A program made the position numbers and the translations under genes. A DNA stretch of 54,931 bases from an uncultured Syntrophomonadaceae bacterium (GTDB lineage: Bacteria; Bacillota; Syntrophomonadia; Syntrophomonadales; Syntrophomonadaceae): contig CAZLYH010000003.1 of the NCBI GenBank assembly GCA_964563775.1, forward strand, positions 1 through 54,931. Reading direction: 5' to 3'. The notes beneath the pieces were generated by a model that did not search any database, had not been told where the DNA came from, and saw only the letters and a list, made by a program, of their open reading frames with translations. Below are positions 4,342 through 28,679 of the stretch, in pieces; positions within the stretch are counted from its first letter, which is position 1; every line of letters begins with the position of its first letter.

Positions 4342-5100
4342 TTATTTCACTTCAACCTTTACCGTATTCTTCATCCAGTCAGCCAATTTGGTGGCACAGA
4401 CCTCGGCTTCGTCCTCGATCTTTACGCCGGCCTGCTTGGCAGCCGGGAGGCTCAATTCGACGATCGTGGTCTTGTTATCGGCTGCAGCAGCTGCTACAGT
4501 GTCCACTGGTTTCTTCTTGGCTTGCATGATACCCTTCATGGAAGGATAACGCGGTTCGTTCCAGCTTACCTGGCTGGAAACAACCGCTGGAAGGCTGACC
4601 TCGGTAATCTGAGTTCCGCCATCAGCTTCACTGCTGCAAACCACTTTGCCCCCGGCAACTTCCAGACTGGTAATTACGTTGATGTGAGGATAGCCCAGAA
4701 TTTCGGCTACACGAGTTGGCACCTGGGAGGAACCGTCATCGGCAGCAACATGACCCGCCAGAACCAAATCAGGATTTTCATTTTTAATAGCAGCACCCAG
4801 CGCTACGGCACGAGCATATTCATCTGCTCCCGCATCCTGAGTAACCAAAATACCGCGGTCTGCACCCATCGCCAAAGCAGTACGAATCGCATCCATGGCC
4901 TTATCGGAGCCAGCAGAAACGACCACAACCTCCTTGGCAACCCCTTTCTCCTTAAGCTGAATAGCGCCCTCAACCGCCACTTCATCATAGGGATTAATAA
5001 TGAGGTTGATACCAGCATCCGAAATCTTGCCATCTTTAAGTTCGATTTTGGCCTCGGTATCAAAGGTCTGCTTCACACATACTAGAACCTTCAAGTTCAT
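4342..5100 (-). CDS. etfB: electron transfer flavoprotein, beta subunit
   Basis: 252 aa. The N-terminus MNLKVLVCVKQTFDTEAKI and the INPYDEVAVEGA motif are typical of EtfB. Confidence 0.92.
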   Translation of the reverse strand: MNLKVLVCVKQTFDTEAKIELKDGKISDAGINLIINPYDEVAVEGAIQLKEKGVAKEVVVVSAGSDKAMDAIRTALAMGADRGILVTQDAGADEYARAVALGAAIKNENPDLVLAGHVAADDGSSQVPTRVAEILGYPHINVITSLEVAGGKVVCSSEADGGTQITEVSLPAVVSSQVSWNEPRYPSMKGIMQAKKKPVDTVAAAAADNKTTIVELSLPAAKQAGVKIEDEAEVCATKLADWMKNTVKVEVK

Positions 5101-5348
5101 TCCTCCTTTTCTTCTAAATGATCAATTCCCTCTACAGTAGAGAAAACGCACCAAGCTTGAAATCAACCACCACCCCCAGAATATGAGTATATCTTTTTGC
5201 CTACGGCAATTTTACCGCCTAGATTGAAGAAAAAAGGAATGTTCCCCCCCAAGAGACATGCCCATTCAAGAGTAAAATTCGCTGTCCACATTTTTTTTCC
5301 TGCTTTTTTATCGTTGTCGAACAAGATTTTGCTGAATCGATTTCTTGA

Positions 5349-6134
5349 CTAAATTTTTTGATAGAAAAACGTAGCAATAGATTGCAGTCCCAGTTCCCTT
5401 GACTGAAAGATTTGTTCGGTACTACCGATAAACAATACTCCCCCGCTGCTTAAAGATTCGGTGAAGCGCTTATAAAGCCTTTGTTTGGTTTCTTCGGTAA
5501 AATAAATAACCACATTGCGACAGAGAACCAGGTCAAACCCTCTGCCAAAAGGCTCCCGGAGCAGGTCATGGTGCTCAAACCGAACCATTTTTTTTATTTC
5601 ATCACTTATACGGTAATACTCATCCTCTTTTTTAAAATACCGGTTTAAATACTGGAGCTGCATGCCCTGTAAAGCTTTGCTGGCGTATAGTCCGGCTTCC
5701 GCTCGCTCCAATACCTCTTTGTCGATATCTGTGGCCAGAATCCGCCCGGAAAGCGGAAAATGATTCTCTTTGGCCAGCATAGCCAGAGAATAGGCCTCTT
5801 CCCCGGTGGAACAACCTGCACTCCATATCTTTAGTCCGGGGCGGTCACGCAAAAGCATGGGGATGATTTCCCGTGCCAGGATGTCCCAGTGGTTGCCGTT
5901 GCGAAAAAACTCCGAGACATTGATGGTAATGTGCTCTAAAAATTTGCGGTAAATTACCCGATCACTCTGCAAAGTATCTATAAACTGACGATAGTCGGCA
6001 ACATTCACCGTGCGCATAAAGCTGTTGATGCGGCGCTCCATCTGCGGCCTCTTGTAAGCGGTAAGGTCAATTTTACTAATACGCCCAAATTTCTTGATAA
6101 ACCATTCCCAGTCAAAGTTTGCCTCCATACTCAC
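5349..6134 (-). CDS. CheR-type SAM-dependent protein-glutamate O-methyltransferase homolog (orphan)
   Basis: 261 aa. CheR N-domain plus SAM-binding motif IWSAGCSTGEEAYSLAML. The GTG start overlaps the hemL TGA stop (GTGA). Confidence 0.8.
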   Translation of the reverse strand: MSMEANFDWEWFIKKFGRISKIDLTAYKRPQMERRINSFMRTVNVADYRQFIDTLQSDRVIYRKFLEHITINVSEFFRNGNHWDILAREIIPMLLRDRPGLKIWSAGCSTGEEAYSLAMLAKENHFPLSGRILATDIDKEVLERAEAGLYASKALQGMQLQYLNRYFKKEDEYYRISDEIKKMVRFEHHDLLREPFGRGFDLVLCRNVVIYFTEETKQRLYKRFTESLSSGGVLFIGSTEQIFQSRELGLQSIATFFYQKI

Positions 6135-7429
6135 GCCTCCTGATTCAGCCCCTTCAAAGCCCTTGCATATGCAGAGATAGTCTTTTCCACATCCTCCAAC
6201 TCATGGGCGGTGGAAATGAAGCTCACCTCAAACTGGGCAGGCGGAATATAGACACCTTCGTTCAAGAGCGCACGGAAAAACCGGGCATACTTTTCGGTAT
6301 CACAGGTCAGAACCTGGGCATAGCTCTCCACCTCCACATCGGTGAAAAAGACACAGAACATTGATGCAAAATGGTTTATGGTGTAGTACAGGTCGTGTTC
6401 CTCAAACAGCGATTTTAAGCGGGTGGCGAGCACGTAAGTCATAACTTCCATACGCTCATACCAATCATTGTCCTGAAGTATCTTCAGTGTAGCCACACCG
6501 GCCGCCATGGCCAGCGGATTTCCCGACAGGGTCCCGGCCTGGTAGACATCCCCCTGCGGAGCTATCCGGGACATAATCTCCTTTTTGCCGCCGTAGGCAC
6601 CCACGGGCAGACCACCACCAATAACTTTCCCCAGGGTAGTGAGGTCGGGACAAACCCCGCATATATTCTGAAATCCCCCATAGCAGGTACGAAAGCCGGT
6701 AATCACTTCATCAAAAATGAGTAAGGTACCATACAAATCGGTAATTTTACGCAGTCCGGGGAGAAATCCCGGCTCCGGTAGTACCAGCCCCATATTACCG
6801 GCAATGGGCTCCACTATTACGGCAGCGATATCAGGTCCGTTTTCCCGAAAAAGCTTCTCTACCGAGGCCAAATCGTTATAGGTTGCCACCAGGGTATGAC
6901 CGCCCACCGACTCCGGCACTCCCGGACTGGTCGGCACTCCACCCGTCATAAGACCTGAACCGGCTTTAATCAAAAAACTGTCCGAGTGTCCATGGTAGCA
7001 TCCCTCAAATTTGACAATCTTGCTGCGCCCCGTGTAAGCACGGGCCAGTCTTATAGCACTCATGGTCGCTTCGGTTCCCGAATTAACCATGCGGACCATT
7101 TCCATGGAGGGAATGGCCTGGCAAATCATCTCTGCCATCTCCAGTTCCGCTTCGCAGGGAGCGCCATAACTGGTCCCCTTCAGCGCCGCCTCCTGCACTG
7201 CTTGTATCACCTGGGGATGACTGTGTCCCAGAATCAACGGTCCCCAGGACCCCACATAATCAATGAACGTATTTCCATCTACGTCCCGGACTTTGCAGCC
7301 GCTGGCTTCCTGTATAAAAAGAGGCTCCATCCCTACCGCTCGAAAAGCCCTTACCGGGCTGTTAACTCCTCCGGGAATATGCTCCCGGGCCCGAGAAAAG
7401 AGTTCCTGCGACTTAATGGTATTTAGCAA
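6131..7429 (-). CDS. hemL: glutamate-1-semialdehyde 2,1-aminomutase
   Basis: IPGGVNSPVRAF and the PLP-lysine region LGKVIGGGLPVGAYGG. I prefer the TTG start at 7429, which follows GGGAGAGG by 6 nt. The ORF track's ATG at 7495 would overlap the upstream gene and add about 22 atypical residues. Confidence 0.9.
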   Translation of the reverse strand: MLNTIKSQELFSRAREHIPGGVNSPVRAFRAVGMEPLFIQEASGCKVRDVDGNTFIDYVGSWGPLILGHSHPQVIQAVQEAALKGTSYGAPCEAELEMAEMICQAIPSMEMVRMVNSGTEATMSAIRLARAYTGRSKIVKFEGCYHGHSDSFLIKAGSGLMTGGVPTSPGVPESVGGHTLVATYNDLASVEKLFRENGPDIAAVIVEPIAGNMGLVLPEPGFLPGLRKITDLYGTLLIFDEVITGFRTCYGGFQNICGVCPDLTTLGKVIGGGLPVGAYGGKKEIMSRIAPQGDVYQAGTLSGNPLAMAAGVATLKILQDNDWYERMEVMTYVLATRLKSLFEEHDLYYTINHFASMFCVFFTDVEVESYAQVLTCDTEKYARFFRALLNEGVYIPPAQFEVSFISTAHELEDVEKTISAYARALKGLNQEA

Positions 7430-7455
7430 AATTATCCTCTCCCGTCTGCCTAAAT

Positions 7456-7935
7456 CTATATATATTCCATACTGACCTTTTTTAATTCCCGACAACTTTT
7501 CAGGACTACATAATCATCCAAACCGCTTTGCCGGGCCATGGACTGTATAGTGCTCTGCAGACTTTCTTCACTGCTGGCATGAACCATGGTAAACAGGTTA
7601 TAAGGGAAATCCTTTGGCACCTCGCGCAGATAACAATGACTGACCTCGCCAAACTGAGCCAGCAAATCTCCACTGCGCTCAGCATCCTCCGGTCTGACTC
7701 TCCAGGCTACCATGGCATTGCTGGAAAATCCGGCCTGCTGGTGACGAAGAATGGCCCCTACCCGGCGCAGGTAACCAGCATCTGATAACCTGTTGATCCG
7801 AGCTAAAATTTCTTTTTCGTCAATCCCCAGCTGCCGGGCCAGTCCAGCAAATGGCCGCGAACTTAAGGGCAGATCTCCCTGCAGAAATCGCAGGACTTCC
7901 CTGTCAATTTCATTCATATTCCTTTTCTCCCTCAA
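7456..7935 (-). CDS. ahbB: siroheme decarboxylase subunit (AsnC/Lrp-like NirD/L/G/H family); the A versus B assignment is arbitrary
   Basis: 159 aa. LRFLQGDLPLSSRPFAGLARQLGIDEKEIL HTH-like N-terminus. Paired with a paralog and the Ahb radical-SAM genes. Confidence 0.75.
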   Translation of the reverse strand: MREKRNMNEIDREVLRFLQGDLPLSSRPFAGLARQLGIDEKEILARINRLSDAGYLRRVGAILRHQQAGFSSNAMVAWRVRPEDAERSGDLLAQFGEVSHCYLREVPKDFPYNLFTMVHASSEESLQSTIQSMARQSGLDDYVVLKSCRELKKVSMEYI

Positions 7936-8395
7936 CCTGAAGCGGAAAACGGACCCGTATTTTAAAAACCCGGGTAGCCGGCAGGCTATAAATGATGGTT
8001 CCGGCTTCCTTCTCCAATCTGGATATAATCTTATCTGCCTCTTCCCTGGAGCTGGCCGTCAGGGTAAACCAGATATTCAAAACATGGTCGCGCACATAAT
8101 TGTGCGTAACTCCTCTTTCCTGATTAATCAGCGCTGCTACACGGTCGATATCCGCATTGGGGATCTGGCAGGCACAGAGAGTGGAGTAAAATCCCAACGT
8201 GCGGGCATCCAGGACTCCACCAATGCGCCGGATCAGTCCCTGGTCCTTGAGCGCCTGAATACGTTCAAGCAATTCATCTTCGCTGATGCCCAAGTTTACC
8301 GCCAGGTCTGCAAATGGTGCCACACTTATAGGAAAATCACCCTGCAAGGCATTCAAGATATGTGCATCCAGTGCCGCCAGCTTTTTACCGGTCAT
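7910..8395 (-). CDS. ahbA: siroheme decarboxylase subunit (AsnC/Lrp-like NirD/L/G/H family)
   Basis: 161 aa. LNALQGDFPISVAPFADLAVNLGISEDELL. Overlaps both neighbouring genes, which suggests coupled translation. Confidence 0.75.
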   Translation of the reverse strand: MTGKKLAALDAHILNALQGDFPISVAPFADLAVNLGISEDELLERIQALKDQGLIRRIGGVLDARTLGFYSTLCACQIPNADIDRVAALINQERGVTHNYVRDHVLNIWFTLTASSREEADKIISRLEKEAGTIIYSLPATRVFKIRVRFPLQVEGEKEYE

Positions 8396-9413
8396 CTTTC
8401 CCCCGCCTTCCCGGCTGGTAACTGCACCAGTTGTCTTCCGCCATCATATCTCCGCCACTATAGTAATAGGCACGAGCCCGGCAGCCTCCGCACCGTTCTC
8501 TAAAGTCACAAATGCCACATTTGCCCTTATACTCGGCCGCTCTCAGCTGCTGCAAAACCGGGTTGTCCCTCCAAATGTCCGCGAAGGATTTTTCACGGAC
8601 ATTGCCCAACTTTATATCCAGATAAGCACAGGGCTGCACCTGACCTACCGGACTAATAATGCAATAACTGATTCCCGCCAGGCATCCCCGGGTAAAGCGA
8701 TGGGAAACTCCTTTTGCCGCCGCAATCCGCATGAACTGTGGAGCACAGGTAGGCTTGATTTCTATAGCTACCTCTTGCTGTTTTTTCATGAGCAGATTAA
8801 TGGTTTTTTCATACTGGGCCACTCGCAGCGCTTCCTGCTCTATGTTTACCGCCCGGCCGGTGGGAACCAGAAAAAAAACGTGGTGCCCCATGGCGCCTAT
8901 GTCAATCGCAAAGTCGGTTAGGGCCTCAAGTTCCCCAACATTCCAGTCCATTACAGTGGTGTGGATTTGTACTGCCAGACCCGCCGCTTTTAAATTGTGT
9001 ATGCCTTCCACCGTTCGCTCAAAAGCTTTATCCAGGTGGCGGAAAACATCATACTTTTGCGGATCAAGGCTGTCCAGGCTAACCCCGGCGGCCTGAAAAC
9101 CGGCCGCTTTCAATTCTCTGGCAACTCCAGGGCTAACCAGGGTCGCGTTCGTCCCCAGGACTGGCCTTAACCCCTGGCTCTGCGCATAATTACCCAGCTC
9201 AAAAAGGTCAGGGCGCATCAAGGGCTCTCCGCCGCTAAAAATCATAATCCTAAATCCGGCCTCCCGGATTTGCTCAATCAGCCTCTTGCCTTCCACCGTG
9301 TTGAGCTCATCACCAAGCCGGGCTCCCGCATCACGATAACAATGGTCGCAGAACATATTACACTGATTAGTGGTATTCCAGGAAACCAGCACCGTATTCC
9401 CTCCCAACAACAA
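8385..9413 (-). CDS. ahbD: radical-SAM/SPASM enzyme of the NirJ/Ahb family; probably heme b synthase AhbD
   Basis: 342 aa. CNMFCDHCY radical-SAM motif and a C-terminal Cys-rich (CGICDFRERCGGC) SPASM-like region. The AhbD name rests on its position next to ahbA, as I recall it for Desulfovibrio, and on its length. C versus D is not certain. Confidence 0.6.
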   Translation of the reverse strand: MLLGGNTVLVSWNTTNQCNMFCDHCYRDAGARLGDELNTVEGKRLIEQIREAGFRIMIFSGGEPLMRPDLFELGNYAQSQGLRPVLGTNATLVSPGVARELKAAGFQAAGVSLDSLDPQKYDVFRHLDKAFERTVEGIHNLKAAGLAVQIHTTVMDWNVGELEALTDFAIDIGAMGHHVFFLVPTGRAVNIEQEALRVAQYEKTINLLMKKQQEVAIEIKPTCAPQFMRIAAAKGVSHRFTRGCLAGISYCIISPVGQVQPCAYLDIKLGNVREKSFADIWRDNPVLQQLRAAEYKGKCGICDFRERCGGCRARAYYYSGGDMMAEDNWCSYQPGRRGKDDR

Positions 9414-9424
9414 TCGTCAGCCTT

Positions 9425-10402
9425 TTAGCCCTGCAGCAATTCAGCCATGTAGGGTGCAAAATAGGTAATAATCAGGTCAGCTCCGGCCCGCTTAATGGAG
9501 GTCAATACCTCAGCAACCACCCGTTCCTCATCTATCCAGCCCTGCAGGGCGGCTGCCTTCACCATGGCATACTCGCCGCTGACGTTATAGGCCGCCGTCG
9601 GCATACCGAATTTATCTTTCACAGTACGAATGACATCCAAATAAGGCAAGGCCGGCTTCACCATCACGATGTCCGCCCCTTCCTCAATATCCAGTGCCAC
9701 TTCGCGCAAGGCTTCCCGGGCATTAGCCGGGTCCATCTGGTAGGTCTTGCGATCACCAAAACGCGGCGCTGATTCAGCCGCCTCCCGGAACGGTCCATAA
9801 AAGCTGGAGCAGTACTTGGCACTATAGGCCATGATGGGTACCTGCGTATAGCTGTTCTCATCCAGGCATTTGCGGATAGCGGCCACCCTACCGTCCATCA
9901 TATCCGACGGGGCTACCATGTCACATCCGGCCTGAACATGGGACAGGGCCTCCCGGGCCAGTAATTCCAGGGTGGCATCGTTGTTAACCACACCGTTGTC
10001 TTCTACCATTCCGCAATGACCATGATCGGTGTATTCGCACATACACACATCAGTAATCACCATTAAATCCGGGCAGCTGTCCTTGATAGCCCGAATCGCC
10101 CTCTGCACCTCGCCATGCCCCTGCCAGGCGGAACTACCTGCGGCATCCTTATGCTCCGGAATTCCAAACAGCAGCACGGCCGGTATTCCCAGTTGGTTTA
10201 CCCGGCGAGCCTCCTCTGCCACCAGGTCCACCGACAGCTGGCAGATTCCCGGCATGGAAGCAACTGGTATCTTCTTGTTCTGGCCATAGACCACAAAAAG
10301 CGGGTAGATCAAATCTTTTACGGTTAGTTCAGTTTCCCGGACCATAGACCGAACCGTCTGACTGGCCCGCAAACGGCGCATACGAGTAACTGGAAATGCC
10401 AT
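9425..10402 (-). CDS. hemB: porphobilinogen synthase (Zn-type)
   Basis: 325 aa. [14 protein letters not shown] zinc site and the active-site region [12 protein letters not shown]. Confidence 0.93.
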
Positions 10403-10467
10403 AATACCCCTTCCTTTCTGCGGTTGTTGATGGAAACTAAAAGCCCAACAGCTGTGGCTTATACACC

Positions 10468-11652
10468 TTACGCCCTTTCCCTGGTTTCCTCCTCACTAAG
10501 ATAACAGGCTGGATCTTCGGCCCAGAGATCACCATAGACTGCCCGGGCGCGTATACGGCACCCGCTACACAAACTCTTGTAGCTGCATTGTCCACATTTT
10601 CCTTTTACGTGCTCTTCTTTATGGCGCAGTTTTACCATAAGTTCGTCGTCTCCAGTCCAAATCCGGCTAAACGGCTCTTCACGAACATTGCCCACCGTGT
10701 AATCCTGCCAGAACTGGCAGGGGTGTACATTCCCCCGAGGGTCTATATTGGCAAACTTGGTACCAGCCGAACAGCCCCCATGCATCCCCAGCAGGCGCAC
10801 CACCTCATCCACCCTTTGCGGGGCAAGTTTCTTAATGTAATTCAACAGGAAGATTCCATCGGCATGGTTGTCGGTGGTCATGATCTCCACCTCCACACCC
10901 TTTTCATGAAATTCCAGAGTTTTCTGGCAGATATACTCCAGGATGCGGCGTTTCTCCTCCCCGCCGATATCGGTCGCGGCCATTTCCTTGCCCCGGCCGG
11001 CGTAAACCAGGTGATACATGCAAAACCGGGGAATACCTTCCTTTTCAATAATGTCGAATACTTCCGGCAGGTCCATCTGGTTATGGCGGTTTACGGTAAA
11101 GCGAATACCAGTCTTCACTCCATTATCCATACAGGCCTTGATACCGCTGATAGCCTCGGCAAACGCCCCCGCTTTGTTGCGAAAAGTGTCATGGGTCCGT
11201 GGAGCCCCATCGATACTGACCCCCACATAGGAAAATCCGGCCGCCTTTATTTGACGGGCCACCGCATCGGTAATAAGAGTTCCGTTGCTGGAAATGACCG
11301 CCCGGATTCCTAACCCTACTGTCATCTCTCCCAGTTCAAAGAGGTCCTGGCGCAGCAGAGGTTCACCACCAGAAAAAAGCAAAACCGGCACTGTCATTTC
11401 CGCCAGGTCCTCAATCATCACCCGGGCTTCATCCGTGCTCAGTTCGTCATGATAACGCCGATCCTCGGCCTCAATATAGCAATGCTGGCAACGCAGGTTA
11501 CAGCGGTTGGTCATGTTCCAGACCACCAATGGGCGGTTAATATCCGAAAACTGCAAAAGCTGGGCAGGAACTTCCTGCCCTGAGCCCTGATAGCGAATAA
11601 CGTCGGATACGGTAGCAGTTCCGCAAAGAAGTTTGGTGCAACCTATCATCAA
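10468..11652 (-). CDS. ahbC: radical-SAM/SPASM enzyme of the NirJ/Ahb family; probably 12,18-didecarboxysiroheme deacetylase AhbC
   Basis: 394 aa. [15 protein letters not shown] motif and C-terminal [13 protein letters not shown]. The C versus D assignment is tentative. Confidence 0.6.
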
Positions 11653-11699
11653 TCCTTCCCCCCGTTCAAGTATGATCCTCAGAAATCATTTAAACGTGA

Positions 11700-13232
11700 C
11701 TACCGGTGCAGCCCCGATTGGCTATCCTCCAGAATGGCCTCCACCAGACCATTAATGGTATACTCCCTGGCCGTTACAGCCACACTAAACCCCAAATCAT
11801 GAGCTTTCTGAGCGGTAACAGGGCCAATACACGCTACCCGGGCGGCCCGGTTAACCCGCCAGACGTTTTCCGGACCAATCATGGCAACAAAATTGCTTAC
11901 CGTTGATGAACTGGTAAAGGTCAGGTAGTCCACCTTTCCGTTCAGAATATCTTGCAGGTGTCTATGTTCACCCCGGGAGGTGGGAACCGCCTCATAAAGG
12001 ACCACTTCATTAACATGGACTCCCCAATTGCGCAGGGTCTCTGGTAAAATACCTCGCGCTCCCCGGGCCCGGGGAAGCAGAATCCATTCCCCCGGTGCAA
12101 TCAATTGTTTTAACTCCTCCAGTATCCCTTCCGCGCGATATTCTTCCGGAACCACCCTGACCTTGATGCCCCGTTTTTGAACCGCTTGGCGGGTAGCCGG
12201 TCCGATGGCGGCAATATGAATATCTTTAAGATCACGGATATCCATGTCGAGATTGTCTAACTCCGCAAAAAAGATTTCCACCGCATTCACGCTGGTAAAA
12301 ATAATCCACTGGTAATGGTTAATGTTTTTCAGAGCGTTATAAAGTGGTCCCAGATTCTCTTCCCGGCGAATTTCTATGGACGGAAACTCGATTGGCTGCC
12401 CCCCCAGTTCCAGGATGGCCTCTACCAGTACACTGGCCTGAGCTCGGGCACGGGTCACCATTATCTTCTTCCCCCACAGGGGTTTATTCTCCAGCCATTT
12501 CAATTCCTCGCGCAGACTGACGACCTCACCCACCACGATGACTGCGGGCGGCCGAAAGGATTTCTCTTCCACCCGGCGCACAATGTTATCCAGTCGTCCC
12601 GTTAAAACTTCCTGTTCCGGCAGGGTCCCCCAGCGGATCAGAGCTACCGGTGTAGCCGGATCACGGCCGTTATTAATCAGGCTTTCACATATAAAAGGAA
12701 GATTCTCCACTCCCATGAGAAAAACCAGGGTACCTATCCCGCCGGCCAATTCCTTCCATTTGATGGAGCTTACCGCCTTATCCGGCTTTTCGTGGCCGGT
12801 AACTACCGCGAAACTGGAAGTGGCCTCCCGATGGGTTACGGGAATGCCAGCATAAGCAGGAACGGCCAGGGCCGAGGTAATACCAGGTATTACCTCAAAA
12901 TCGATACCATTCTGGCGAAGGTAAAGGGCCTCCTCCCCGCCCCGCCCAAACAGAAAAGGATCGCCCCCTTTGAGGCGGACTACTATTTTCCCTTCCCGGG
13001 CCTGCCGTACCAGTAATTCATTGATCTCTTCCTGAGCCAGGGCATGTCTCCCTGATTCTTTACCAACATAAATAAATTTTGCTTGTAAGCCGGCCATATC
13101 CAGAATCTGTTCTCCAACCAGGCGGTCATAAACGACCACCTCGGCCTTTTCCAGCACCTTTTTACCCTTGAGGGTAAAAAGTCCGGGATCGCCCGGACCC
13201 GCGCCCACCAGATAAACCAGACCTTTTTTCAT
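11700..13232 (-). CDS. cobA/hemD: bifunctional uroporphyrinogen-III C-methyltransferase / uroporphyrinogen-III synthase
   Basis: 510 aa. N-terminal SUMT signature VYLVGAGPGDPGLFTLKG. The C-terminal ~250 aa are HemD-like. Confidence 0.88.
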   Translation of the reverse strand: MKKGLVYLVGAGPGDPGLFTLKGKKVLEKAEVVVYDRLVGEQILDMAGLQAKFIYVGKESGRHALAQEEINELLVRQAREGKIVVRLKGGDPFLFGRGGEEALYLRQNGIDFEVIPGITSALAVPAYAGIPVTHREATSSFAVVTGHEKPDKAVSSIKWKELAGGIGTLVFLMGVENLPFICESLINNGRDPATPVALIRWGTLPEQEVLTGRLDNIVRRVEEKSFRPPAVIVVGEVVSLREELKWLENKPLWGKKIMVTRARAQASVLVEAILELGGQPIEFPSIEIRREENLGPLYNALKNINHYQWIIFTSVNAVEIFFAELDNLDMDIRDLKDIHIAAIGPATRQAVQKRGIKVRVVPEEYRAEGILEELKQLIAPGEWILLPRARGARGILPETLRNWGVHVNEVVLYEAVPTSRGEHRHLQDILNGKVDYLTFTSSSTVSNFVAMIGPENVWRVNRAARVACIGPVTAQKAHDLGFSVAVTAREYTINGLVEAILEDSQSGLHR

Positions 13233-22834: not shown

Positions 22835-23215
22835 CTAGATATTTACCACCAGGCGTTCTTCCCGGTCTTGCAAAAGTCCCCTCTTCACTTCCGACGCCTT
22901 TACCTCAGTCGCCCTAAACATGGTCTCCAGGTAAGAGCAGGCATCCCAGGGGTTTACTCTGTCGCCGCAGGTAAAAACGTCAACTGCAGCATACCCGAGT
23001 TCGGGCCAGGTATGAATCGCCAGGTGCGACTCGGAAATAACAACAACACCGCTTACACCTTGAGGACTGAATTTGTGGAAGACAACTTCTCTAATCTCGG
23101 CGCCAGCCTCTAAAGCGGCACTTACCATGATATCCTCCACCTTATGGATATCGTTGAGTACATCGAAGTGGCAACCGTACAGTTCGGCTAAAACGTGGCG
23201 CCCCAAAGTCTGCAA
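22835..23215 (-). CDS. speH: S-adenosylmethionine decarboxylase proenzyme, small SpeH/SpeD class
   Basis: LGRHVLAELYGC N-terminus and the self-processing site VVISESHLAIHTWPE. I prefer the TTG start at 23215 (AAGGGAGG 8 nt upstream). A strong promoter lies inside the longer track ORF (to 23359), and the ATG at 23254 has its SD only 1 nt away. Confidence 0.85.
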   Translation of the reverse strand: MQTLGRHVLAELYGCHFDVLNDIHKVEDIMVSAALEAGAEIREVVFHKFSPQGVSGVVVISESHLAIHTWPELGYAAVDVFTCGDRVNPWDACSYLETMFRATEVKASEVKRGLLQDREERLVVNI

Positions 23216-23282
23216 CGATCCCGCCTCCCTTCTGTTATTCAATGCCGTTCCCATACCTCCCTTCAAAAAACGTACATGTAGA

Positions 23283-23310
23283 ATTTTAGCATATTTGTTG
23301 TTCATGTCAA
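23283..23310 (-). promoter_or_regulatory. sigma-A-like promoter, TTGACA-N16-TAAAAT, for speH
   Basis: Minus-strand TTGACA (23310-23305) and TAAAAT (23288-23283). Near-consensus hexamers. Confidence 0.55.
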
Positions 23311-23467
23311 TAAAATACTGGTGATTTAACCGTGGTTTAATATGTAATATGATAGACATGACTAACGGGTGAAATTATAAAAACAACGCCCCATATTAAG
23401 CTGGCAAGGTGGGAAGGACTTAAAGCCCATAAGAAGTGCCCTTGCGAGCAAGGAGGAGTATAAAACA

Positions 23468-25693
23468 ATGAAGAAAGCGATTACCTGGCTAGCGGTACTG
23501 CCTATTGCCTTCCTGCTCTTGTGCAGCCCGGCACAAGCAGATCAACTTCCGGACAAAAAAGTCGTAATTGTGATCCACGATTTTGTGGATATTAGCGACC
23601 TGGAGCAAGCCCGCACTCCAAACTTACATGCCCTTATCGCTCAGGGCGGTACCGGGCTTATGAATGTGCGCAGCCGCAGTGGTCTGCCCGCCAGTGCTTA
23701 CATGTCCCTGGCAGTAGGGAGCCGGGCCGGGACCGTCGTCGGAGCGGAATTGTCCTTTAACTGCTGGGAACCCGTTCGAGGATGGTCAATCTACCCTGCT
23801 GACAACCCGGAAGCTCCGCTTGCCGGTGAACTCTATGCCAGTTTTACCGGCCAGGCTCCACCTGAACAGGGAATAGTCAACCCCTTTATTGAACCTATAA
23901 AGAATTATGCCTCTACCTTCAATCCACCTTATTTCCCCGCGCAGTTGGGGGAAAGAGCTCGCCAGGCAGGGTTACGGGTCGCTGTTCTGGGTAATGCGGA
24001 TACCAGAGAGGCTTTGGATCGCAGCGCGGTTCTCCTGGCCATGGATGCCAATGGGCAGGTTGCCCACGGTAATGTCAGCCAAACTCTGCTGGAAGAAGAC
24101 CCCTCCTTCCCCGGGGGGCTGCGAACCCGGTCCGAGGTATTTATCGATCAATTTTCCTCCCTTTATTGTGACAACGATATTCTGGTGGTAGATTTGGGGG
24201 ATACCACACGGGTGGAAAAAAGTCGGGAAAACTGCTCTCCGGAAATGCTTAAAATACATAAGCAGAAGGCCCTGGAACGAAATGATTATCTGGTGGGAAA
24301 AATGCTCCAGCAAATTGATCTGCAACAGACCATGCTGTTCCTCCTCACTCCCAATCCCAGCGGAGAAATGGTTAAGCAGGGAAACTTCGGGCTGGCGCCT
24401 ATCCTGGTATACCAACCAGGAATACCCGCAGGACTTTTAAGCTCCTCCACGACCAGGCGGGCCGGTCTGGTGAGTAACTCGGATTTTCTCCCTGCCGTCA
24501 TGGCTTTCCTGGGCGACAAACCTAAACCGGTTATGAAAACCACCCCCGGAACGGACCATAGTCTGCAGGCACTCGACCAGAAACTTGCTTTTCTGATTCG
24601 CCTGCGGCAGCAAAGGGGGGTTTTGCATCTCATTTTTATTTTCTTTGCTGTTTTGACTATTGCCGGAGGCTACTGGGTGCATATCTGCAAGCAGGAAAAA
24701 GGCTCCCGAGTTTTAAGCCTGCTGTTGTTGACTACTCTTAGTATGCCACTGGTTATCTTGTGCTTAAGTCTTTTCGGGTATCGTTCCATAGGACTGTCAG
24801 CTTGCTTACTGATCGGCCTTTCTATACTGGCGGGTGTAACTCTGTATTACGTTTTCGGCTCGAACCTTTTACCAGCCGTTCTCTGGCTTAGTTTTGCCAC
24901 CATGCTGGCGATAACCGCGGATGCCTTTCTGGGCTCGCCCTTGATGATCAATTCAGCCCTGGGCTCAGATAGCATAGCCGGGGGACGCTTTTATGGAATT
25001 GGTAACGATTATATGGGCATACTCCTGGCCAGTTCCATTGTGAGCATAACCCTGCTGATTAGCTCTCTGCGCATGAAACCTTTGACTAAAGCACTACTCG
25101 GCCTGGTTCCTCTGGGGATTGTTACTACCGCTATTGGTCATCCTCATTATGGGGCCAATATGGGTGGATTGATAACTGGTATTGTCATGCTGGGCTTTTT
25201 CTACCTGGTGATAATGGAAATTCGCCTAACCCCGAAAAGGTTGGTCTTGATTGGCCTGACCGCCCTGGCAGGTGTTTTGGCAGTAGCCCGGTTGGATGCC
25301 CTGTTTAGCGCCAATCCTTCTCATGCCGGTCAAGCTATCACCAGCCTCTTTAGCGGTGGATGGACGGCCCTGTTTTCCATTATAAAGATCAAGCTGGGCA
25401 TCCTGGGAAATGCCGTTTACCATTCCCCCTGGAGCCTGGTCTTGCTATTATCAGTAATCTTTTTGGCATCTTCCTGGATCCGCCACCAGCAGACTCTGGG
25501 CGATGTCCTCCGTCAGTTTCCGGCTGTGCAGAAAGCAGGCAATCTCCTGCTACTGACAGCCGTAACCGTTTTCCTCGTAAATGATACAGGGGTTATTGCC
25601 GCAGCACTAATTTTTCTTTACCTGTGCAGTTTACTGTGGGCAGCCCTGGCACAAAACAGGCTGAAGAAGGAAAGCGGTGGTGACCGGCTATGA
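23468..25693 (+). CDS. large envelope protein of unknown family: signal peptide, ~360-aa extracytoplasmic domain with an alkaline-phosphatase-superfamily-like N-terminal motif, and a C-terminal polytopic (about 9-11 helices) membrane domain
   Basis: 741 aa. MKKAITWLAVLPIAFLLLCSPAQA signal peptide. KKVVIVIHDFVDISDL..ARTPNLHALIAQGG resembles the metal-Asp strand plus the TPNL motif of NPP/sulfatase-type enzymes. The hydrophobic domain starts near residue 385. SD AAGGAGGAG lies 9 nt upstream. Confidence 0.85.
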   Translation: MKKAITWLAVLPIAFLLLCSPAQADQLPDKKVVIVIHDFVDISDLEQARTPNLHALIAQGGTGLMNVRSRSGLPASAYMSLAVGSRAGTVVGAELSFNCWEPVRGWSIYPADNPEAPLAGELYASFTGQAPPEQGIVNPFIEPIKNYASTFNPPYFPAQLGERARQAGLRVAVLGNADTREALDRSAVLLAMDANGQVAHGNVSQTLLEEDPSFPGGLRTRSEVFIDQFSSLYCDNDILVVDLGDTTRVEKSRENCSPEMLKIHKQKALERNDYLVGKMLQQIDLQQTMLFLLTPNPSGEMVKQGNFGLAPILVYQPGIPAGLLSSSTTRRAGLVSNSDFLPAVMAFLGDKPKPVMKTTPGTDHSLQALDQKLAFLIRLRQQRGVLHLIFIFFAVLTIAGGYWVHICKQEKGSRVLSLLLLTTLSMPLVILCLSLFGYRSIGLSACLLIGLSILAGVTLYYVFGSNLLPAVLWLSFATMLAITADAFLGSPLMINSALGSDSIAGGRFYGIGNDYMGILLASSIVSITLLISSLRMKPLTKALLGLVPLGIVTTAIGHPHYGANMGGLITGIVMLGFFYLVIMEIRLTPKRLVLIGLTALAGVLAVARLDALFSANPSHAGQAITSLFSGGWTALFSIIKIKLGILGNAVYHSPWSLVLLLSVIFLASSWIRHQQTLGDVLRQFPAVQKAGNLLLLTAVTVFLVNDTGVIAAALIFLYLCSLLWAALAQNRLKKESGGDRL

Positions 25694-27870
25694 AAAAAGC
25701 TATTCTGACAATATTACTTCTCCTTGCTATGCTCCTTCCCCAACCGTTCCAGGCCCTGGCCGCGCCGGTTGAGCAGCCAGGGGTGGTCATATTCCTGGTC
25801 GACAAACTTACTCTCGATGACCTGAGTCCGGAGACAACCCCCTTTCTATGGGAGTTAAGCCTGCAAGGGGGAATTGGGCTTCTGAATGCGACTACGGGTG
25901 GAACTCGTAACAGTGGCAACTCTTGCGTGACCATTTCTGCCGGCAAACCAGCGACAGCCGTCGCTGACAGCGGGCTAAATTATGCCGCAACCGAACTGGT
26001 GAACGGCGAACCGGCAGGTAAAATTTATACGCGTTATACCGGTGTTACCCCGCTACCTAATAACATAGTGGTACAGGAAATTGAAAAATTAAAAAGATTT
26101 AATGAGGAGAAGCAGGCTTATCCTGGAAAACTCGGAGATCAGGTTCATGCCCTGGGGTTAAAAACAGGTTTACTGGGAGACTCGGATCGTTTGGACCGCC
26201 CCTCCCGTCTCGGCGCCCTTCTCTTGATGGATTCACGGGGTATTATTGATCGGGGAGTAGTTGGAGAAAAAGTGCAAGTTCGTGACCCCGGAGCGGCCCT
26301 AAATATCCATACCGATTACCAGGCTCTGCTGGCCGAAAGTAAAACAGTGTCCGATTGTGATGTAGTGGTAGTGGAATTTGGTGACCTTAACCGCCTGGAG
26401 GCAGTTGATAGGTTTTTCCACCCCAACCAGTTAAAAAAAGAAAGGTTGCAAATACTTTCCAACATTGATAATTGTTGCCGGGACTTTCTAGCGCGGAAAG
26501 AATTCTCCGGGCGGTCCGTTTATGTTTTAAGTCCTTCCCCAACCCACAGCTCAGTGGAACGAGGCGAGTTGCTCACTCCCCTGGTTGTTGTTAAGCCCGG
26601 ATTTCAAGGTATTCTCTCTGGCTATTCCACCCGCAGGGAGGGTATTGTTTCCAGCCTGGCCTTAAAAAATTCGATTGTCAGCAGTCTTAATTCGGAAACA
26701 CGGGATACCATCTATACTGTTTTCCACCCCTATCCGGTAGATTTTCTTTCCCGGCTTGACCAGGGTCTGGTCTTTGGCTATATCCATCAGCCGCTGGTTA
26801 TTATCATTACCCTGGCGGCAGTAGCACTGGCCCTTTTACTGGCCATTTACCTGGCTATCCGGAAAAAACATCGTCATTGGCTGCACCTGCTACTATCCCT
26901 GGTGGTAGCCACCCCCCTGACCTTCTTGCTTATTGCGCGGGTTCCCATGAACAACCCGCTTCTCTTCCTGGCTCTGGCGGGGGTCACCAGCTTTCTATTG
27001 GCTAGCCTCTCGCTGGCCCTGGGGGTCAAACTTAAAATACACCCACTGGCACCCCTTTTCCTGGCCACTATTTTTACCATCGCTCTGGATCTGTTTTTCG
27101 GTCTGGGGCTCTTGGAAAATTCCATGATGAGTTACCGCATTATGCAGGGTTCGCGTTACTACGGCCTGGGCAACGAATACATGGGTGTACTGATTGGCGC
27201 CACCATTGCTCTGGCAATTACCCTGCTACAGGAAAGGCCTTCTGCCCGACGAGTTCAACTGGTTGCCCTGCTATTTTGCGGCGTGGTGTTCCTCATCGCT
27301 TACCCCCGTTTTGGCATAAATGTGGGCGGAGCCATTACGGCTTGTCTGGCCCTGGGATATACCTATATGCAGTTTCGCCAGCACCCCTTCAACACCTACA
27401 AGGTTATCCTCTTGATCGTAGGCACTGCACTCCTGGTAACGATTATGTCGGTTATTGATCTGCAGCAGCCACTTGAATACCAATCCCACCTGGGGAGAAG
27501 TGTTACCCTGGTAAAAGACGGTGGAATACAAGCTGTTTTAAACATAATAACGCGGAAAGTTGAGATGCAGTTAAGAGTAATCAATTATACCATGTGGGGC
27601 TGGGTGCTTATTGCCGGAGTTCTGTTGGCATTGTGGTCTGTATTTCACCCGAGTCAGGCAATTGGCAGCCTGCGAAAGGTCCATCCGCAAGTCTACCAGG
27701 GCCTGAAGGGAATAATAATGGCAGCAATTCTGGCCATCATCTTTAACGATTCCGGCATTACTGCTGCCACTGCCCTTTTATTCTATTTCCTGGTGATTCT
27801 GTTGGTCTACTTTGACACCAATATGGTAGCGGAAAAATGGAAAAACCGATTAGCCAGGTTAAGGAACTAG
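25690..27870 (+). CDS. paralog of the preceding envelope protein, with the same architecture
   Basis: 726 aa. The ATGA start/stop overlap with the upstream gene suggests coupled translation. Motifs are collinear with the upstream protein: VVIFLVDKLTLDDL..TTPFLWELSLQGG, GSRYYGLGNEYMGVL and IFNDSGITAA match GGRFYGIGNDYMGIL and LVNDTGVIAA. Confidence 0.85.
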   Translation: MKKAILTILLLLAMLLPQPFQALAAPVEQPGVVIFLVDKLTLDDLSPETTPFLWELSLQGGIGLLNATTGGTRNSGNSCVTISAGKPATAVADSGLNYAATELVNGEPAGKIYTRYTGVTPLPNNIVVQEIEKLKRFNEEKQAYPGKLGDQVHALGLKTGLLGDSDRLDRPSRLGALLLMDSRGIIDRGVVGEKVQVRDPGAALNIHTDYQALLAESKTVSDCDVVVVEFGDLNRLEAVDRFFHPNQLKKERLQILSNIDNCCRDFLARKEFSGRSVYVLSPSPTHSSVERGELLTPLVVVKPGFQGILSGYSTRREGIVSSLALKNSIVSSLNSETRDTIYTVFHPYPVDFLSRLDQGLVFGYIHQPLVIIITLAAVALALLLAIYLAIRKKHRHWLHLLLSLVVATPLTFLLIARVPMNNPLLFLALAGVTSFLLASLSLALGVKLKIHPLAPLFLATIFTIALDLFFGLGLLENSMMSYRIMQGSRYYGLGNEYMGVLIGATIALAITLLQERPSARRVQLVALLFCGVVFLIAYPRFGINVGGAITACLALGYTYMQFRQHPFNTYKVILLIVGTALLVTIMSVIDLQQPLEYQSHLGRSVTLVKDGGIQAVLNIITRKVEMQLRVINYTMWGWVLIAGVLLALWSVFHPSQAIGSLRKVHPQVYQGLKGIIMAAILAIIFNDSGITAATALLFYFLVILLVYFDTNMVAEKWKNRLARLRN

Positions 27871-28310
27871 TCCAAACCCCCGATGATGTTTTTAATACCA
27901 TGGACAAATTCCTTCTGATACCCTTCGCCCAGAAGATCATAAAGCTGAGCATTAAAAGAACTTCCCATCCGGGCAACTTCCTGAGCCACCTCTTCTCCTT
28001 TGGAGGTCATAAACACCCGGATAGCCCTGCGGTCCTGGGGGTCAAGCTGTCTTTCCACCAGATTATCCTTTTCCAGCTTATCTACCAGCACAGTCATGGA
28101 GGAGCTGTCAATGAGGGTACGGTTGCCAATCTCCTTCAGGGTCAGGCCGTTTTCTTCAGAAAGACACAAAAGGATAAAAGATTGCGGAATACTAACTCCC
28201 AGAGGATCCAGCTTGGAGCTTAAATGCTTGTCAATCTTCTTCATGGCAGCTCGCATTCCAAAACAGATAAACGTATTGAGGTCTGACATTCTCCAATAAC
28301 TCCTTTTCAC
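27867..28310 (-). CDS. MarR-family transcriptional regulator
   Basis: 147 aa. Winged-helix region SFILLCLSEENGLTLKEIGNRTLIDSSSMTVLVDKLEKDNLVERQLDPQDRR. Its stop codon overlaps the convergent upstream gene's stop within CTAG. Confidence 0.85.
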   Translation of the reverse strand: MKRSYWRMSDLNTFICFGMRAAMKKIDKHLSSKLDPLGVSIPQSFILLCLSEENGLTLKEIGNRTLIDSSSMTVLVDKLEKDNLVERQLDPQDRRAIRVFMTSKGEEVAQEVARMGSSFNAQLYDLLGEGYQKEFVHGIKNIIGGLD

Positions 28311-28607
28311 GAAGATATATTTTTTACACGTAAATACTGAGCATGTAATAATACTATCTTACTGCCTGATTCTTGTAAATATCCTTGTACCAACGAAGTA
28401 CAGACTAAATCATCCCTATCCTGGTTCAGGCTTGAACTTTTCCAGTCAACAATGTTATTTTAGAATAGACTGCAACAAAATACAATGTACACCGTGGCAA
28501 GACCTGTGAAATAGGTTCCCCTCTTTTCTTAAATTGAGGGATAATATACCCGGGCTAATCGCGCTGTCCCGGTAATCCGTCACTGCAAAGACTATACCAG
28601 CCTCCTT

Positions 28608-28631
28608 CCCCTTCGGGTTAGGGGTTTTTTT
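28608..28631 (+). terminator. short hairpin plus T7 in the trpS leader; a possible attenuator
   Basis: CCCCT-TCGGGTT-AGGGG followed by TTTTTTT, about 50 nt upstream of the trpS ATG. There is no plus-strand gene upstream that it could terminate. Confidence 0.45.
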
Positions 28632-28679
28632 CGTAAGCCTGCATGAAAATTGTTAAGACATAGGAAGGAGTTTACTAAT

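Follow-up and report, generated by a model that had tools for sequence, protein, structure and literature searches.

What do two long, adjacent genes of no recognisable family contribute to the cell envelope of an uncultured Syntrophomonadaceae bacterium? The genes lie on the plus strand of contig CAZLYH010000003.1, within the 54,931-nucleotide stretch analysed here (the window), and we refer to them as open reading frame (ORF) A (23468–25693, 741 aa) and ORF B (25690–27870, 726 aa). ORF A is the A-type paralogue (from the ORF call, its homologues and a structural model) and ORF B the B-type paralogue (from the ORF call, its homologues and a neighbour-joining tree) of an unnamed protein family, which we label FAM. 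We give about even chances to the reading that the two proteins form a heterodimer that transfers, polymerises or ligates a polyprenyl-phosphate-linked glycan on the extracytoplasmic side.

ORF A and ORF B align end to end with 28% identity across ~730 columns (BLASTP E = 8e-58), which places their paralogy far beyond chance. The stop codon of ORF A and the start codon of ORF B overlap in an ATGA at 25690–25693 (plus strand; ORF call and sequence), which is read from the sequence as translational coupling, so that the pair of coupled, full-length paralogues described in the initial annotation is upheld. A strong ribosome-binding site, AAGGAGGAG (23450–23458, plus strand), was found by direct reading of the sequence 9 nt before the ORF A start codon.

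Both proteins comprise an N-terminal hydrophobic segment (ending AQA/ALA), an ectodomain of ~340 aa and ~11 hydrophobic helices, and this layout, as well as a domain order that is the inverse of LtaS and EptA, had been anticipated in the initial annotation and is borne out by hydropathy and AlphaFold2 models. The order is also the inverse of YejM. For ORF A, the first segment (aa 1–24, ending AQA; 23468–23539, plus strand as for all features of the pair) is a signal peptide or membrane anchor judging by hydropathy and sequence. It is followed by the ectodomain (aa 25–365; 23540–24562), assigned to the alkaline-phosphatase (AP) superfamily fold from Foldseek and conservation tables, and by the membrane domain (aa 366–741; 24563–25690), with a juxtamembrane helix, 11 transmembrane (TM) helices and a cytoplasmic C-terminus according to the AlphaFold2 model, the positive-inside rule and natural fusions. 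The ORF B ectodomain (aa 25–350; 25762–26739) is AP-like by homology to ORF A, and its membrane domain occupies 26740–27867, of which aa 340–726 were modelled.

From an alignment of 73 family sequences, AlphaFold2 modelled ORF A with a predicted local distance difference test score (pLDDT) of 92.2 and a predicted TM-score (pTM) of 0.90. A Foldseek search of this confident model against the PDB returned 40 matches at E ≤ 1e-3, all of them in the AP superfamily with a probability of 1.0. The best was 2zkt (PH0037/apgM-like; E = 3e-8, target-normalised TM-score 0.56), and others included LtaP/LtaS (E = 1e-5 to 3e-4), YejM/PbgA, arylsulfatases and NPPs. As all 40 matches are of this superfamily, the AP resemblance that had first been guessed from the letters proved correct, and in the model the ectodomain is an AP-superfamily fold. 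Weak SGSH_C and Phosphodiest signals in the ectodomain are the only curated-model signals for the FAM core, with a sub-threshold Phosphodiest match (E = 4.7e-4) in one fused relative (P0125).

The canonical site of the superfamily is, in contrast, largely missing. The N-terminal strands (VVIVIHDFVDISDL..TPNLHALIAQGG in ORF A and VVIFLVDKLTLDDL..TPFLWELSLQGG in ORF B) had been likened to a metal-binding Asp strand, and this stands in part: D38 of strand 1 is present in both ORFs and aligns with the ligand Asp of NPPs, but it is only ~70% conserved (68–75%), with N, P, Q or A elsewhere. The later DHG-type metal ligands, already missed when the sequence was first read, are absent from the family alignments, where the ‘DHG’ position reads SPxP. 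The same alignments have no conserved histidine anywhere in the ectodomain and no conserved Ser, Thr or Cys at the nucleophile position after strand 2. With the Asp at ~70% and no conserved nucleophile, head-group phosphotransfer of the LtaS/EptA type is disfavoured.

An alternative conserved polar set is present in the ectodomain, consisting of D178, R185, D245, R248, T329, R330 and R331. Among the 73 aligned members, D245 is kept in 96%, R248 in 99% and T329 in 100% (96% for T329 once fusion halves are added), and D178 and R185 vary in actinobacterial fusions, where the TM motifs stay invariant. In the model, each of the conserved polar residues comes after the C-terminal end of a core strand, at the edge where active sites usually lie; their clustering into a pocket is deduced from the secondary-structure positions of the model. 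The B clade lacks R86, D339 and R383, all three of which are kept by the A clade and the single-copy members.

This pocket gives rise to the alternative that survives best, namely a non-canonical AP-superfamily phosphotransferase with LtaS-, EptA- or LCP-like chemistry, in which T329 would serve as the nucleophile and R248, R330 and R331 would bind phosphate. Such an enzyme would move glycerol phosphate, phosphoethanolamine or glycosyl-1-phosphate onto an envelope polymer, from a phospholipid or polyprenyl-diphosphate glycan donor presented by the TM domain. It would suit the nearest folds (apgM-like, LtaP/LtaS, YejM and sulfatase structures), the conserved polar pocket (D245, R248 and T329) at the canonical active-site position, and the GT4 glycosyltransferase found next to FAM genes, which could make a glycolipid anchor as in lipoteichoic acid pathways. 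We nevertheless consider it unlikely, given an ectodomain without a conserved histidine or a Ser, Thr or Cys at the canonical nucleophile position, a D38 that is often P, Q, A or N, a D178 and R185 that drift in actinobacterial fusions with invariant TM motifs, and no Pfam match to Sulfatase, Phosphodiest or Metalloenzyme.

The characterised enzymes closest to this alternative differ from FAM in several ways. LtaS/LtaP, EptA/MCR-1, OpgB and BcsG likewise work on the envelope through an AP-superfamily extracytoplasmic domain carried by a polytopic membrane domain, and the two-paralogue arrangement recalls the LtaP primase and LtaS synthase of Listeria. FAM departs from them in its inverted domain order, in conserving neither the Thr nucleophile nor the Asp/His (Glu) metal ligands, and in being most strongly conserved in the membrane domain rather than in the ectodomain. 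Pfam and NCBIfam searches at E ≤ 1 gave no match to the Sulfatase model (PF00884), whose domain follows five N-terminal TM helices in LtaS/EptA-type enzymes. The reversed layout is not unprecedented, because the glycosylphosphatidylinositol (GPI) ethanolamine-phosphate transferases PIGN/O/G have an N-terminal anchor, an AP-like luminal domain and a C-terminal multi-spanning domain. These multi-membrane-spanning enzymes have AP-like active sites (PMC9168625), but they are eukaryotic zinc enzymes with canonical AP ligands. We found no Pfam match to PigN (PF04987) or Phosphodiest in ORF A, ORF B and 10 diverse members, and the zinc ligands are absent.

The membrane domain is the most conserved part of the family, and the motifs picked out in the initial annotation are all present and collinear in the two proteins. 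In ORF A, these are GGRFYGIGNDYMG (24980–25018) in the outer loop between TM4 and TM5, with R507, G510 and N513 invariant; PHYGANMGG (25142–25168) in the loop between TM6 and TM7, with G562 and G566 invariant; and NDTGVIAA (25580–25603) in the loop between TM10 and TM11, with N705 and D706 at least 97% conserved. The ORF B counterparts are GSRYYGLGNEYMG (27148–27186), PRFGINVGG (27304–27330) and NDSGITAA (27745–27768). R507, G510, N513, G562, G566, H619, K642, N705 and D706 are invariant or nearly so family-wide, and the TM motifs stay the same from Bacillota to Actinomycetota, while D38, D178 and R185 of the ectodomain vary. The positive-inside rule puts both termini in the cytoplasm and the ectodomain outside, and the invariant residues D485, R507, Y509, G510, N513, P559, G562, G566, D610, H619, K642, N705 and D706 are predicted to lie in outer-face loops or at helix ends. 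They include three conserved acidic residues on the outer face of the TM domain (D485, D610 and D706). Both paralogues retain every invariant residue; R641 is kept in the B clade and in single-copy members, and the A clade has lost Y500 and R641.

The AlphaFold2 model of the ORF B membrane domain (aa 340–726) had a pLDDT of 92.6 and a pTM of 0.92. Searching the PDB with this TM-only model, Foldseek found nothing at E ≤ 1e-3. The top-ranked neighbour, not significant, was WaaL (7tpg_B; E = 0.4, TM-score 0.34), and STT3 chains ranked second, third and seventh, also without significance (E ~0.5, TM-score 0.25); both WaaL and STT3 are enzymes that work on lipid-linked glycans. An internal repeat was not detectable when the first and second halves of the TM domain were compared (hhalign probability 0.7%). 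The modelled 11-TM fold therefore appears to have no counterpart in the PDB.

The absence of a recognisable family, asserted at the outset, held in curated resources: Pfam, NCBIfam and PADLOC contained no model for the FAM core in ORF A, ORF B and 15 diverse or fused relatives, and searches of PDB sequences with single sequences and with a full-length profile gave nothing significant. Database records name members ‘hypothetical protein’, automatically ‘Alkaline phosphatase’ or ‘Phosphoglyceromutase’, and in one case ‘O-antigen ligase’; we found no support for this last label of one NCBI record. We came upon no published description of the family when searching the literature by architecture, by SteA/SteB, and by accession or locus tag of Syntrophomonas wolfei. 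Word-indexed searches gave only 26–73 matches, and the idea of a rare family was rejected when a profile searched exhaustively against 1.84 billion cluster representatives returned 6,776 proteins at E ≤ 1e-3 (3,630 at E ≤ 1e-30), counted as 50%-identity clusters and belonging to Bacillota, Actinomycetota and Armatimonadota. Among the best 150 of the 6,776 matches, most are full-length at ~700–800 aa. The family is neither small nor peculiar to this locus, with thousands of members, most of them single-copy. A motif scan of GTDB species genomes located at least 490 loci, with carriers in Syntrophomonadaceae, Peptococcaceae, Desulforudis, Carboxydothermus, Thermoanaerobacter, Thermoanaerobacterium, Alkaliphilus, Tissierella, Terrisporobacter, Halanaerobiales, Ammoniphilus, Armatimonadota and Actinomycetota. 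One metagenomic JGI protein (P0003, 621 aa) matches 57% of ORF A at 99% identity and has precomputed PF20199 and PF23343 matches; the probable cause is a chimera or misassembly of the contig, or disruption of the gene by a mobile element.

The genomic context of relatives, for which neighbours were clustered at 86 loci, carries the functional proposal. The commonest neighbour is a GT4 glycosyltransferase, on the same strand and within 84 bp at 26 of the 86 loci, in many clades. FAM is also naturally fused to GT2 glycosyltransferase domains, as GT2-FAM (e.g. P0085), FAM-GT2-FAM (P0101, P0103, P0111) and MurJ-FAM-GT2-FAM (P0125). The best matches of these GT2 domains are polyprenyl-phosphate sugar synthases of the PpgS, AglJ and Dpm1 types. 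GT2, flippase and FAM genes are co-located at L060, L002, L088, L089 and L070/L073/L082, and the gene row at L060 (GT2, DUF2304, small EamA, FAM) has the layout of three-component extracytoplasmic glycosylation systems (PMC11127046). Taken together, the GT4, the Dpm1-like GT2, the MurJ or EamA flippases and the MraY/WecA-like transferase found near relatives point to a polyprenyl-linked glycan pathway. The initial annotation had suggested polymer or lipid head-group transfer at the envelope by a heterodimer; the pairing stands, but head-group transfer of the LtaS/EptA type is disfavoured and the context of relatives indicates a polyprenyl-linked glycan.

A second set of loci ties FAM to steA and steB. 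At L006 (a metagenome-assembled genome of Actinomycetota; 4400–13200), L088 (5670–16030) and L089 (4130–14206), the last two being metagenome contigs with actinobacterial-type synteny like L006, FAM lies between steA-steB and pyrG. The module is located between recN and pyrG and consists of steA, steB (MctB), a MurJ-like flippase (missing from some modules of this type), FAM or FAM-GT2-FAM, and a 280-aa MraY/WecA-like transferase (PNPT). A steA-steB-GT2-PNPT-DUF3866 block also lies divergently beside FAM in Thermoanaerobacterium and two other Bacillota (L073:3134–10205, L070:3094–10184, L082), and a conserved 280-aa Glycos_transf_4 (MraY/WecA-like) partner was found in both phyla. SteAB regulates the hydrolase RipA (PMC12977500), and glycosyl genes go unmentioned in that 2026 paper. 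The link that these loci draw between the SteAB cell-separation regulator and a lipid-linked glycan pathway may therefore be unreported.

A further protein recurs in these surroundings. Cluster c17 is a ~190-aa protein that begins with a TM or signal segment and matches nothing in Pfam. It is encoded divergently and directly upstream of GT4-FAM at Peptococcaceae-type loci (L004, L005, L032, L045, L047, L053, L059, L064), and it may be a further partner.

The case for a dimer comes from the history of the pair. Tandem A-type and B-type genes are present in six further Syntrophomonadaceae loci of those clustered, so that co-occurrence of the paralogues, which the initial annotation had proposed as a check, is seen within this lineage, but most family members are single-copy. 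S. wolfei encodes A and B together as one ORF of 1,479–1,488 aa in the same synteny, in more than 20 independent assemblies, and these natural A–B fusions back the pairing of the paralogues. The complete Goettingen genome (CP000448, 759284–783750 reversed; L090:10001–14467) encodes the 1,488-aa form (ABI68000.1 / Q0AZ54), whose locus tag is probably Swol_0677, since the neighbouring thiolase is Swol_0675 (PMC3582634). The fusion joins the cytoplasmic C-terminus of A, through a ~30-residue linker, to the retained N-terminal hydrophobic helix of B, which there becomes an internal TM segment, and a joint at the cytoplasmic C-terminus of A corroborates the proposed topology. This internal helix ends ...AKPVQA|AE, a signal-peptidase-like site, and judging from the sequence the fusion might be cleaved back to two chains.

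A neighbour-joining tree, which is distance-based and approximate, places the A/B duplication as lineage-specific to Syntrophomonadaceae, with ORF B nearer than ORF A to the single-copy members. Terrisporobacter and the actinobacterial-type FAM-GT2-FAM fusion proteins each show a duplication of their own in it. These independent duplications suggest that the basic functional unit is a dimer. Besides the ATGA overlap, the losses of the two clades, which are complementary (R86, D339 and R383 in B, Y500 and R641 in A), speak for pairing. ORF A and ORF B probably work as one functional unit, the dimer itself being a putative assembly. Two single-copy Tissierella proteins (L012, L013) group with the A clade and have some of its signature residues (S500, with R641 and N646 lost); an A-type protein may therefore be able to do without a B gene in tandem, unless a B-type copy lies elsewhere in the Tissierella genomes.

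Drawing on these results, the pathway that we propose would begin in the cytoplasm, where a GT4 or a Dpm1/PpgS-like GT2 would put a sugar or short glycan on polyprenyl phosphate, joined in some lineages by a short MraY/WecA-like phosphoglycosyl transferase at this loading step. A MurJ-like or small EamA-type flippase would then carry the lipid-linked glycan to the outer leaflet. There, the Arg/Lys/His ring of the TM domain of the FAM dimer would bind the phosphate or diphosphate of the lipid-linked glycan, and the dimer would polymerise or ligate the glycan or use it for glycosylation, placing it on an acceptor or a chain under extension. The invariant outer loops of the TM domain would make up the catalytic or donor-binding site. 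Above this site, the AP-like ectodomain would be a repurposed cap that binds an acceptor or anionic group, and its Arg-rich pocket (R248, T329, R330/R331, D245) may hold the acceptor. Architecture, fold, conservation, pairing and genomic associations are observed; we infer the identity of donor and acceptor, and likewise which residues are catalytic and that the proteins dimerise.

In this pathway FAM would fill the role of GT-C, WaaL or Wzy enzymes as a distinct protein family. It resembles WaaL, Wzy and the GT-C enzymes of three-component systems (GtrC, ArnT, YfhO) in being polytopic with a conserved site on the outer face, and in that its relatives partner a Dpm1/GtrB/PpgS-like GT2 and a flippase, including covalent fusions (PMC11127046). 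The differences are that these enzymes have no significant sequence or fold similarity to FAM, that the large AP-fold ectodomain of FAM precedes, and does not follow, the 11 TM helices, and that the FAM motifs (GxRYYGxGNEYMG, PxxGxNxGG, NDSG) are different. For the O-antigen ligase/Wzy_C family (PF04932) in particular, there was neither a Pfam match nor a significant fold match.

Several observations weigh against a glycan transferase, polymerase or ligase. The TM domain has no significant likeness to GT-C, WaaL or SEDS proteins; its profile aligned to Escherichia coli WaaL with an hhalign probability of 0.4%, and the TM-only profile found no match among PDB sequences. Catalysis could instead reside in the strongly conserved pocket of the ectodomain (T329), and this would speak for the phosphotransferase. 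The 55-kb window contains no glycosyltransferase or flippase, and tblastn found no GT4, GT2, SteA or PNPT homologue in it; with no partner genes in the window, the pathway link is transferred from relatives. Among these relatives, the GT4 is of a generic subtype, and the MurJ, PNPT and SteAB contexts come from only six loci.

The SteAB loci bear on a second alternative, a non-enzymatic sensor or scaffold like PbgA/YejM, which would bind an envelope lipid or glycopolymer and control other machinery such as the cell-wall hydrolases under SteAB. The periplasmic domains of YejM/PbgA (6vat, 6xlp, 6v8q) rank with the best structural matches and share with FAM an AP fold of degenerate or uncertain catalysis; the canonical catalytic residues of FAM are lost; and the gene lies within or beside steA-steB operons at six loci in two phyla, SteAB being known to control the hydrolase RipA (PMC12977500). 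YejM differs in having five N-terminal TM helices before its ectodomain, in occurring in Gram-negative bacteria and in lacking a counterpart of the 11-TM domain of FAM. What makes this role rather more doubtful than the phosphotransferase is the membrane domain, in which some 12 invariant polar residues of the outer-face TM loops, shared across phyla, resemble an active site more than a binding surface. It also sits poorly with the repeated covalent fusion of FAM to a GT2 catalytic domain and a flippase, which suggests consecutive steps of one pathway.

Least probable, in our view, is an exporter or flippase whose 11-TM domain would translocate a GT4- or GT2-made glycolipid or polymer to an ectodomain that receives or binds the product outside; this would account for the polytopic domain and for operons of GT4 and FAM alone without a separate flippase, but conserved residues are restricted to outer loops with none lining the mid-membrane, a transporter-type internal repeat is undetectable, no transporter fold was significant in Foldseek, and other lineages have dedicated MurJ-like or EamA flippases together with FAM or fused to it.

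The glycan transferase, polymerase or ligase reading can be extended, although we regard the extension as tentative and rather doubtful. FAM might then be a structurally new, non-GT-C class of outer-face enzymes that polymerise or ligate polyprenyl-diphosphate-linked glycans, working as homo- or heterodimers with an AP-fold pseudo-enzyme cap for acceptor binding; the class would be widespread in Gram-positives, among them Clostridia, other Bacillota and Actinomycetota, and in some lineages wired to SteAB within a previously unrecognised secondary cell-wall polymer pathway.

If the proposal is true, thousands of Gram-positive genomes, including those of syntrophs, thermophilic Clostridia and Actinomycetota, encode an unrecognised enzyme for the final step of envelope glycopolymer synthesis. 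It would be a fourth solution, beside GT-C, WaaL/Wzy and LCP, for using lipid-linked glycans outside the membrane; it would assign a function to a degenerate alkaline-phosphatase fold, and provide a genomic lead tying SteAB-controlled cell separation to glycan synthesis. The kind of system, lipid-linked glycan assembly, is a known one, and what appears to be new is an uncurated family with a membrane fold outside the PDB. The split pair here and the fused gene of S. wolfei offer a natural test case for the evolution of an obligate heterodimer. If the proposal is wrong, FAM is still a large, well-defined and confidently modelled hypothetical family that merits a curated model.

The immediate neighbours of the pair are as initially described, with speH divergent upstream and a MarR gene stop-to-stop downstream. 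speH (S-adenosylmethionine decarboxylase; 22835–23359, minus strand; Pfam AdoMet_dc E = 9e-44) is a frequent synteny neighbour that adjoins family genes at 19 of the 86 loci. The convergent MarR-family regulator (27867–28310, minus strand; Pfam MarR E = 1e-15) shares overlapping stop codons with ORF B within CTAG, and its homologues (cluster c52) are present at L049 and L058 only. We rejected a functional role for both: speH adjacency follows a long, conserved housekeeping synteny block, and few relatives carry MarR. The window is syntenic with Syntrophomonas genomes, in a common block that starts with haem and menaquinone genes, continues with speH and the pair, and reaches trpS and the genes for rubrerythrin and polyamines.

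As called from its longest ORF, speH (174 aa) has an N-terminus ~48 residues longer than that of its 126-aa orthologues, and a near-consensus promoter-like TTGACA-16-TAAAAT lies on the minus strand at 23310–23283, within this extension. The true speH start is probably downstream of the longest-ORF start, and the intergenic region between speH and ORF A would then be ~250 bp. Rfam gave no match in the whole 55-kb window, including no T-box or other family at E ≤ 1 upstream of trpS or of ORF A, and the window has no tRNA genes. Directly 5' of trpS (region 28311–28650, plus strand), a GC-rich, terminator-like hairpin at 28608–28634 is followed by a T-run, and from its sequence it looks like a leader attenuator.

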